64,000 nucleotides of DNA, taken from Myxococcota bacterium (lineage in GTDB: Bacteria > Myxococcota_A > SURF-8). The stretch spans positions 288,001 through 352,000 of the forward strand of contig CAXXQS010000002.1 of NCBI GenBank assembly GCA_963674735.2. The letters run 5' to 3'. The position numbers and the translations under genes are program-made. The notes beneath the pieces were generated by a model that was not told the origin of the DNA, did not search any database, and was given only the letters and a program-made list of their open reading frames with translations. Positions within the stretch are counted from its first letter, which is position 1. Each line of letters begins with the position of its first letter. This document shows, one piece after another, positions 16,748 through 17,932 of this stretch.

Positions 16748-16771
16748 GATTCGTAGCGACTGTTATCGGTG

Positions 16772-17707
16772 TCAAGCGAAATTCGGGTTCCAGGCTTCGT
16801 TTTTCCGCATCATCGTGTTGAGAATGAGGACCAATTTTCGCATGCAGGCCACCACCGCCGTCATCTTCGGTTTGCCGCGTCCGACCAGCCGCTGGTAGTG
16901 TCCGCGAATCACCGGGTTGTGTTGAATCGCCACCAGCGTCGGCATGTAGAGCGCCGTGCGCAGGCGATGACGACCGCCGCCGGTCATGCGTTTACCCCGA
17001 AACGTTCCGCTGTCCCGATTCATGGGCGCCACGCCGATCAACGCCGCGATCTGCCGCCGGTTGTAGATCCCCAGCTCCGGCAGATCCGTCACCAGAAGAT
17101 TCGCCGTGCACGCGCCGACGCCCGGCATCGTTTGGAGCCGCGCGGCCCGGTCGCTGCGCTCCCGATCCGATGCAATGGCCGCCGCGATGGCCCGATCCAG
17201 CCGCTCGATTTCCCGTTCGATCACCTCCAGAATGCGGTGCAGGCTTTGTCCGATCGTCCGATCGCCCACGTGTTCGGTGCGGTTTTTCTCCATCGTGCGC
17301 ATGGCGACCAGCTGCCGCCTCCGTGAAGACAGGGCTTTTAACAGGAGGGCGGTTTCGCCGAGCGTTTCGTTCGGTGCGGGACGCATGGCGGCTGCGTAGC
17401 GTGCGATGATGCCCGCATCGAGTCGATCCGTTTTCGCCATCACGCCGACGGCGCGGGCATAATCCCGGATGCGCCGGGGATTGACCACCGCCACCGGCCA
17501 ACCCGCTTTCTGAAGACGTTTGCACAGCTCCCGTTCGTAGCCGCCGGTGGCTTCCATCACGACGCCCTCCACCTCGATCCGCTTCAACGAACGGACGAAG
17601 CGTGTCATGCCGGCTTTGGTGTAAGCGTAGCGGACGCACGTGCTTTCGCCGTCGACGGCGACATCGAAAACGGCTTTGCTGACGTCGATCCCGATCCATT
17701 TCTTCAT
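16772..17707 (-). CDS. IS110 DEDD recombinase/transposase
   Basis: GIDVSK, EATG, KTDRLDA (D-E-D-D); C-terminal PGVG and RDSG catalytic Ser motif. Confidence 0.97.
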   Translation of the reverse strand: MKKWIGIDVSKAVFDVAVDGESTCVRYAYTKAGMTRFVRSLKRIEVEGVVMEATGGYERELCKRLQKAGWPVAVVNPRRIRDYARAVGVMAKTDRLDAGIIARYAAAMRPAPNETLGETALLLKALSSRRRQLVAMRTMEKNRTEHVGDRTIGQSLHRILEVIEREIERLDRAIAAAIASDRERSDRAARLQTMPGVGACTANLLVTDLPELGIYNRRQIAALIGVAPMNRDSGTFRGKRMTGGGRHRLRTALYMPTLVAIQHNPVIRGHYQRLVGRGKPKMTAVVACMRKLVLILNTMMRKNEAWNPNFA

Positions 17708-17709
17708 GG

Positions 17710-17916
17710 CGCACCCTTCCTTGCCAATACGGGCTCATTTCGATTACAATGGCCCCTGCGACTGTTCGGGTTTTCCCGGACGAAACGGACGGCGGATCCG
17801 GCTACAAAACGGGCTCATCAGGCCCCAGGATGGGACGATCTCGCCGCCCACCACGGCCTCCCGCTTGCTACGGGAGGTCGTTTCATCTTATCATCACAAA
17901 CGATGACAGTCGCTTG
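17710..17916 (-). ncRNA. Putative bridge RNA of IS110 copy 1
   Basis: 5' hairpin 17855-17879; TCCCATCCT (17827-17835) and TTGTAG match the target; ACAGTCGCA (17757-17765) and GGCAAG match the donor junction; ends approximate. Confidence 0.85.
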
Positions 17917-17932
17917 AAAGGGATAATACAAG

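Follow-up and report, generated by a model that had tools for sequence, protein, structure and literature searches.

The 64,000-nucleotide (nt) stretch of a Myxococcota genome analysed here (contig CAXXQS010000002.1, positions 288,001 to 352,000 of the forward strand; hereafter the window) carries, at positions 16755-17932 of the minus strand, what is very probably an autonomous insertion sequence (IS) of the IS110 group and the IS621 type, guided to its target by a bridge RNA encoded in its left end. Every testable feature of an IS110-group element with an IS621-type bridge RNA appears to be present in it: a recombinase with the expected domains and catalytic residues, a predicted RNA with two guide-bearing loops, and a target and a donor to which the guides correspond. 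An earlier note, made on the letters of this DNA alone, had proposed such a system targeting a repetitive extragenic palindrome (REP) of the host, and the layout of four guides, the CT core and the REP targeting that it described were verified in our analysis and are supported by covariation.

The ends of the element could be fixed independently, from eight full copies aligned across the genome, two of which lie in the window. With one core counted, the element is 1176 bp long, and this length is identical in sequence in all eight copies. The left flank invariably reads ...GTTGCCCATC-CT and is followed by the element start TGTATTATCC, and the right end reads ...ACAGTCG-CT followed by AC, which is extended to ACT in seven copies and to ACG in one (copy 1). 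The dinucleotide CT is thus found at both ends without any longer target duplication (...CT/TGTA... and ...GTCG-CT/AC in 8/8 copies), and the donor predicted for a circle junction is ACAGTCG-CT-TGTAT. These ends bear out the targets GCCCATC-CT-ACGA (copy 1) and GCCCATC-CT-ACTA (copy 2) and the donor ACAGTCG-CT-TGTA that had been reconstructed earlier. Within the element, a non-coding left end of 223 nt, which contains no long open reading frame (ORF) on the minus strand, precedes the ATG, and the right end is very short, reaching only 16 nt past the stop codon (16755-16771, core included). Because all eight copies are identical and retain an intact ORF of 311 amino acids (aa) as well as intact guides, the element seems to have been active recently, and the identity of the copies argues for a very recent spread.

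In every copy the insertion target, CCCATC-CT-AC, is situated at the same place, the 3' foot of a 22-nt palindromic repeat of the host, so that the left flank reads GATGGGCAACAAGTTGCCCATC-CT in 8/8 cases. The left target lies wholly in the 3' arm of this palindrome, which has a perfect 10-bp stem, and the core lies at its foot. We found 37 units of the repeat in the genome at up to three mismatches, eight of them occupied and 22 with an empty CTAC tail. The exact unoccupied 10-mer CCCATCCTAC occurs 17 times genome-wide, each time within the repeat.

Comparisons of the 311-aa product support its membership of the IS110 family and its homology to two bridge recombinases of solved structure. The N-terminal part matched PF01548 (DEDD transposase; E = 3e-22), the C-terminal part matched PF02371 (E = 8e-19), and the NCBIfam model NF033542, "IS110 family RNA-guided transposase", scored 218 bits against a cut-off of 140. 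The only relatives of solved structure in the PDB were the recombinases of ISCro4 (E = 3.2e-37) and IS621 (E = 1e-34), both aligned over aa 4-300, and the alignment to the two chains retains the GID, EAT, KTDxxDA and SG motifs. Specifically, the four acidic residues D8, E52, D94 and D97 align with GID, EAT and KTDxxDA of the IS621 chain, and S233-G234 with its SG; the roles of these motifs as the DEDD residues and the catalytic serine of IS621 are taken from the excerpts of PMC11208158 consulted. All of these residues are invariant in an alignment of 28 relatives. The ORF, Pfam, NCBIfam and the solved homologues thus agree with the natural bridge recombinase, a compact enzyme of 311 aa, that had been proposed. 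It had also been suggested that this member may be new. On protein comparison this holds, in a weak sense, insofar as the closest protein in a large collection is 64% identical, but relatives of 311 aa number in the thousands and the NCBIfam entry already carries the words RNA-guided: 7905 of 8000 candidates scored had E <= 1e-30, the best 120 were mostly 311 aa long too, and the clade of 311-aa recombinases covers many phyla, as judged by record titles.

The left end displays the layout of a bridge RNA, i.e., a 5' hairpin followed by a target-binding loop and a donor-binding loop, each loop being composed of an outer stem and an inner hairpin. On its 5' side the target-binding loop has an 11-nt loop carrying UCCCAUCCU, which contains the putative left target guide (LTG), and on its 3' side GUAG, the putative right target guide (RTG), followed by CC. 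A linker separates this module from the donor module, in which the order is a CCC/GGG stem, GA, ACAGUCGC (the left donor guide, LDG), A, the inner hairpin, GU, AUUGGCAAG (the right donor guide, RDG), GA and the closing stem; 6 nt past the module comes the start codon. The strings on which the earlier note had relied were all found on the minus strand where it had placed them, UCCCAUCCU at 17835..17827, UUGUAG at 17807..17802, ACAGUCGCA at 17765..17757 and UAUUGGCAAGG at approximately 17729..17719. Among orthologues, a hairpin of variable sequence and length occupies the position of the 5' stem-loop (alignment of 46 left ends).

The guides correspond to the observed target and donor as follows. 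The LTG matches the target at 8 of 9 positions and the RTG at 4 of 4 (core included); the former is complementary to the bottom-left strand and thus has the same sense as the top strand, and the latter is complementary to the top-right strand and thus antisense. Since LTG position 1, a U in most elements irrespective of the flank, mismatches the target here and in the majority of orthologues, the LTG of this clade is, on this comparison, effectively 8 nt long and the target about 10 bp (CCCATC-CT-AC). The 8/9 match claimed for a 9-nt left target guide was therefore confirmed as a match, but not as a guide length. Likewise, the TTGTAG said to be complementary to CT-ACAA is present, but only its GUAG pairs with the right targets observed, which leaves an RTG of 4 nt. 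The LDG, ACAGUCGC, equals the left donor plus C. The RDG, AUUGGCAAG, faces CT-TGTAT with CAAG:CTTG pairs, a G.T pair and AU:AT pairs, two bases being looped out. The "wobble and mismatch" noted earlier in this guide are real, but they are no imperfection, as they equal the discontiguous RDG published for IS621, in which 9 nt span 7 bp (PMC11208160, PMC11208158). In addition, the C of the target-loop handshake pairs with donor G7, and GA of the donor-loop handshake pairs with target T6-C7.

The comparative evidence is decisive, in our judgement, for regarding the predicted stems of the left end as real RNA structure. We assembled 80 loci from many phyla (again judged by record titles) that encode relatives with protein identities of 33-62%, aligned 46 left ends, and counted a 29-pair structure over the target and donor loops. 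In this structure 86.5% of the cells were paired, in comparison with 74.5% in shuffles and 31-46% with slid partners; changes on both sides were found in 21 of the 29 pairs, and none of 500 shuffles reached any of the five measures. As the structure was drawn from the sequence of this element itself, the paired percentage is biased upwards, whereas the double changes are unbiased. Helices 1 and 2, those of the target loop, were paired in 87.6% and 96.7% of cells, with 12 of their 16 pairs double-changed. A covariance model built from the same alignment gave 73 matches in 81 sources; all of them precede the gene and share its strand, and both copies in the window scored 146.4 bits (the match of copy 2 being at 34835-35023). 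No match to the model was obtained in 9 of the 80 loci, comprising five whose gene match starts no earlier than residue 29, plus the four most divergent (33-36% identity). Both single-sequence minimum free energy (MFE) folds recover the 5' hairpin and the target loop. Both target guides lie in the internal loop of these folds, as the earlier note required of the guides; the donor guides are partly paired.

The guides themselves covary with the DNA that they are predicted to recognize. For each orthologue the left end was defined by TTGTA plus T or A nearest the RNA, with at least 8 nt of flank, and the right end by a recurrence, past the gene, of the 8-mer that forms the LDG of the same element; these rules are independent of the target guides. 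Compared with the left flank at 7 non-core positions, the LTG gave a mean of 5.08 matches over 39 distinct pairs (permuted flanks, 3.02 +/- 0.20; 0/2000 as high), and the RTG, over 5 non-core positions and 50 distinct pairs, gave a mean of 3.26 (permuted, 1.97 +/- 0.12; 0/2000 as high). For instance, one orthologue combines the LTG TTGACACCT with the flank TTGACACCT and the RTG GUCAG with the right target CT-GAC, another combines the LTG GTCATTCCT with the flank GTCATTCCT and the RTG CGAAG with CT-TCG, and in a third the RTG GGGUGAG accompanies the right target CT-CACCC. The donor is nearly invariant among orthologues, and covariation of the donor guides is consequently weak. Rows without a boundary were left out (14 of the 73 matches lacked a left and 14 a right boundary), and distant matches misregistered by one base, e.g., ACTCACCCC versus CTCACCCCT, were kept, which lowers the scores. 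An initial guess that a Desulfobacterales subgroup has a different core and left end was discarded, as the TGTAT rule placed the ends of these elements further upstream. Because the guides stand at homologous structural positions in the 73 matches and covary with the flanks of their own elements, the guide matches are, by this comparison, more than chance.

The bases following the right guides obey the rule given for the handshake guides of IS621, which pair with the non-cognate rather than the cognate DNA (PMC11208158, as excerpted). The first target-loop handshake base was complementary to donor position 7 in 45/45 distinct elements and to the element's own target in 2/45, and the first donor-loop handshake base was complementary to target position 7 in 41/45 and to the element's own donor in 0/45. 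As a separate observation, one locus at 33% protein identity (L107, the record of an Anaerolineae metagenome-assembled genome), with the LDG ACAGTATC, has A as its target-loop handshake base where the others have C, matching T at position 7 of its donor; this is a single compensatory case. The coordinates of all features are collected in Table 1.

Table 1. Features of the IS110-family element and its surroundings in the window (positions of the 64,000-nt stretch).
Feature	Position	Strand	Basis or remark
IS110-family element, copy 1, CT core at both ends included	16755..17932	-	Ends from eight aligned genomic copies
Copy 2, identical in sequence	33888..35065	-	Sits in another REP unit (35066-35087)
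Recombinase coding sequence, 311 aa, DEDD RuvC-like domain and Tnp domain with conserved Ser	16772..17707	-	ORF, Pfam, NCBIfam
-35 box TTGACA, overlapping the stop codon TGA	16770..16775	-	Right end
-10 box TATTAT	17928..17923	-	Left end
5' stem-loop CCUCCCG...CGGGAGG	17857..17877	-	MFE folds
Target-binding loop, outer stem with bulged A, short inner hairpin	17787..17849	-	Folds, covariation, flank matches
LTG, (U)CCCAUCCU = UCCCAUCCU	17835..17827, effective 17834..17827	-	
RTG, GUAG	17805..17802	-	
Target-loop handshake, CC	17801..17800	-	
Donor-binding loop, CCC/GGG outer stem, long inner hairpin with bulged A	17713..17771	-	Helices 3 and 4 covary
LDG, ACAGUCGC	17765..17758, then A 17757	-	
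RDG, AUUGGCAAG	17728..17720	-	
Donor-loop handshake, GA	17719..17718	-	
Left donor ACAGTCG at element right end	16757..16763	-	Core CT 16755-16756; same sense as LDG
Right donor TGTAT in element left end	17930..17926	-	Left-end feature 17923..17930
Occupied REP hairpin GATGGGCAACAAGTTGCCCATC	17933..17954	-	Left target GCCCATC 17939..17933, core CT 17932..17931
Inverted twin REP unit, target intact and unoccupied (...GCCCATC-CT-AC)	17980..18005	+	Adjoins copy 1

Several points weigh against an RNA-guided element of the IS621 type. With LTG position 1 unmatched and the RTG pairing just 4 nt, target specificity rests on about 10 bp. The likeness of the RNA to that of IS621 is a likeness to the published description, and a scan of 16000-18600 with Rfam 15 at E <= 10 returned nothing on the RNA strand between 17708 and 17916, its seven weak matches all being under gathering scores. 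The RNA from the 5' hairpin to the start codon (173 nt) has a folding z of only -0.32, 69 of 200 shuffles folding equally well. A 233-nt stretch reached z = -3.24, but the LDG is paired with the leader in that fold; stability was for both reasons set aside as evidence. More generally, the MFE folds pair the LDG in part, either with the leader segment (233 nt) or with the RDG (173 nt). Finally, in contigs of three sequencing runs from one study, the element is represented by one collapsed contig (16753-17954) whose word depth exceeds that of the flanking contigs, this depth being no measure of copy number, and neither an empty site nor a circle junction was seen for the copy 1 locus in these contigs, which cannot reveal rare forms and are therefore silent on excision.

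With these points in mind, we weighed three other explanations. In the most probable of these, which we nevertheless regard as unlikely, the element is an IS110-family IS whose target is selected chiefly because the protein or the shape of the DNA singles out the structure of the REP hairpin. The guide matches would then add little, and the choice would not be purely RNA-guided but would have a structural layer above base pairing. Such a preference would suit the position of the left target in the arm of a perfect palindrome with the core at its foot; moreover, all 25 exact sites (8 occupied, 17 empty) fall in the repeat, making sequence and structure inseparable within this genome, and a "sequence-structure dual-match" has been reported for ISPpu10 in a preprint (10.64898/2026.03.19.712850). 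In orthologues, however, the guides change along with flanks of quite different sequence, as base pairing predicts, and IS621 can be reprogrammed to non-REP targets according to PMC11208160. It is very unlikely that the copies are immobile relics whose guide-target matches merely record past activity: the contigs, which offer no circle or empty site, would fit this reading, but 8/8 copies are identical over 1176 bp with ORFs and guides intact, and 17 exact targets are still free. A single contig joint, 16747 -> 17978 with other letters between, resembles other REP contexts rather than an empty site. The pre-2024 view of IS110 elements, that the left end acts only as DNA by way of recombinase-binding or subterminal repeats and makes no functional RNA, fits the ordinary thermodynamics of the 173-nt RNA and the subterminal inverted repeat of the right end held by the left end, but is extremely improbable here, as DNA-binding sites do not predict compensatory double changes in 21 of 29 stem pairs, the guides alternate in sense (LTG same-sense, RTG antisense) precisely as in the RNA model, the handshake rule holds, and the solved homologues use RNA.

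Returning to an element guided by its bridge RNA, we infer transcription, circle formation, RNA guidance, catalysis and reprogrammability from the work on IS621. Excision would yield a circle whose ends meet at the CT core, and the junction would bring the -35 box TTGACA of the right end beside the -10 box TATTAT of the left end. The promoter so formed would drive a left-end RNA of ~170-207 nt together with the recombinase encoded downstream. This RNA would fold into the 5' hairpin and two internal loops, the target being the 3' foot of the 22-nt palindromic repeat and the second loop pairing with the junction ACAGTCG-CT-TGTAT via the LDG and RDG. A recombinase tetramer, using the DEDD residues and Ser233, would then exchange strands at the CT core, and the handshake bases would aid this exchange, the C after the RTG with donor position 7 and the GA after the RDG with target positions 6-7.

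The promoter expected at the junction is predicted from sequence: across the joined ends the sequence reads TTGACA-17 nt-TATTAT, a candidate sigma-70 promoter, and of 35 distinct right ends from orthologues, 28 have TTGAC at the equivalent place (counted by eye). In the integrated state, TATTAT faces a weak, REP-derived TGGGCA at 18 nt (promoter scan), which agrees with the weak expression of bridge RNA from integrated IS621 loci reported in the abstract of PMC13626964. Two other promoter-like sites were noticed. An extended -10-like box, TGATAAGAT, is located at 17885-17893 (minus strand) directly before the 5' hairpin, and many orthologues have TATGAT, TATAAT, TAAAAT or TAGAAT at this place (by eye). 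The box was absent from the list of the promoter scan, which demands a -35 box; it may be an internal promoter giving an RNA of ~170 nt from integrated copies. The top promoter-like site of the region is TTGCCA-18-TACAAT at 17721-17750 (plus strand), with 10/12 positions. This site is antisense to the donor loop, its sequence being supplied by the RDG and by ATTGTA in the inner hairpin, and it could be either a chance match or a promoter directed antisense or outward.

The leader of ~35 nt that separates the junction promoter from the 5' hairpin includes GCGACUGU (17913..17906), which is fully complementary to the LDG. The same region forms a subterminal inverted repeat with the right end, nt 16-30 of the left end (AAGCGACTGTCATCG; 17901-17915, minus strand) being reverse-complementary to the right terminus, 16755-16769, at 14 of 15 positions, so that the joined ends of the circle would read almost as a palindrome, in which 12 bp separate two opposed donor half-sites (ACAGTCG-CT-TG). 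Among 43 distinct left ends of orthologues, seven contain a complement of the LDG with at least 7 of 8 bases, versus 3.2% of shuffles. When the 20-nt right terminus was aligned, this element gave 14/20, its nearest relatives 12-13/20 and those further out weaker values; the match exceeds the 8-mer only in the nearest relatives, and we judged it clade-limited. It is attractive to speculate that GCGACUGU masks the donor loop in circle transcripts, or that it provides a second, inverted donor half-site tuning excision versus insertion, albeit we consider either role quite improbable. If true, the leader would be a regulatory layer beyond what is described for IS621.

A further observation concerns the boundary between the RNA and the gene. 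The RDG, the handshake and the 3' strand of the donor stem (CAAGGAAGGG, 17708-17723, minus strand) lie 6 nt ahead of the start codon, and the alignment of 46 left ends retains the consensus GCAAGGAAGGG-N5-ATG. As this segment resembles a ribosome-binding site, donor-loop folding and recombinase translation could be coupled.

The surroundings of the copies contain additional repeats. The REP units at 17930-18003 form an inverted pair separated by ~25 nt. Weak matches of Rfam microRNA models to the pair, with E values of 0.02-0.3 and far under gathering scores, were dismissed as chance hairpins. A second family of palindromic repeats, GGAGCG(C/T)GTCTCCGACGGGCTC, is present at 16724-16746, immediately to the right of copy 1, and also near the copies at C1:2102420 and C1:316333, standing in both flanks of one of them. 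The contigs break at this repeat (loose ends at 16724 and 16726). In the copies at C1:2102420 and C1:316333, ~80 nt of the right flank are identical (ACTCACTACTCACTAATCATC...) before the sequences diverge, and this common flank could represent a composite repeat block or an old rearrangement between copies.

Set beside IS621 as described in the excerpts of PMC11208158 and PMC11208160, the element shares the recombinase fold family with DEDD residues and Ser, the CT core, insertion in a REP-type repeat, and an RNA, predicted here, that is encoded ahead of the recombinase within the left end and in which a 5' hairpin precedes the target and donor loops; feature for feature, its layout follows the description in PMC11208158. 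In IS621 as here, the LTG runs in the same sense as the top strand, the RTG is antisense, and the LDG comprises 8 nt followed by A (A131 in IS621). Linker purines precede each left guide in IS621 (PMC11208158), and a linker G does so here. In the IS621 RDG, A157-U158 and C162-G165 pair, G161 makes a G.T pair and two bases loop out (PMC11208158); the RDG here, A-U-U-G-G-C-A-A-G, corresponds to A157 U158 U159 U160 G161 C162..G165. Handshake dinucleotides follow the RTG and RDG of IS621 (PMC11208158) and are predicted here too, as is a promoter rebuilt across the circle junction. The protein is distant (E = 1e-34, aa 4-300), with 311 aa here versus 328 residues in the solved IS621 chain; the target loop here has 2 nt fewer on its 5' side, with an LTG of 8 versus 9 nt and a target of ~10 versus 11 bp; and the target sequence and the host repeat are others. 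The left end is 223 nt here versus 191 bp in IS621 (PMC11208160), with ~35 extra nt of leader. Both donor-loop handshake bases match the target here, whereas U167 of wild-type IS621 does not (PMC11208160, PMC11208158).

Other relatives were compared more broadly. ISCro4/IS622 (PDB 9t56; preprint 10.1101/2025.05.14.653916) is the best match of solved structure and belongs to the same family; its solved chain has 341 residues and comes from another host, and the comparison was made at the protein level only. ISPpu9 and ISPpu10 of Pseudomonas putida are described, in the portions used of PMC12288879 and 10.64898/2026.03.19.712850, as multicopy IS110-family elements that are each inserted in a repetitive extragenic palindrome. 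They differ from the present element in host and repeat, the likeness being one of description only. In IS1111-group elements the guide RNA is carried downstream of the gene, whereas here the non-coding RNA region (223 nt) lies upstream of it, just 16 nt being left after the stop codon. The IS1111 group, with its seekRNA, belongs to the same transposase superfamily and also chooses its sites by RNA guidance.

As the system was described in 2024, and the mechanism class, REP targeting and the CT core are already published, knowledge of the mechanism is unchanged by this element. Judged from its sequence, it is a genuine but ordinary addition to a known and populous bridge-RNA family, whose protein is already named RNA-guided by annotation pipelines, and it would not surprise a specialist. 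For the host, the finding marks a small REP family as a landing pad for an IS. For the family, it provides a clean natural example in which the target, the donor, four guides, the handshakes and a junction promoter are readable from eight identical copies, and bridge editing could gain from it one more orthogonal pair of enzyme and RNA, whose left target guide is slightly shorter.

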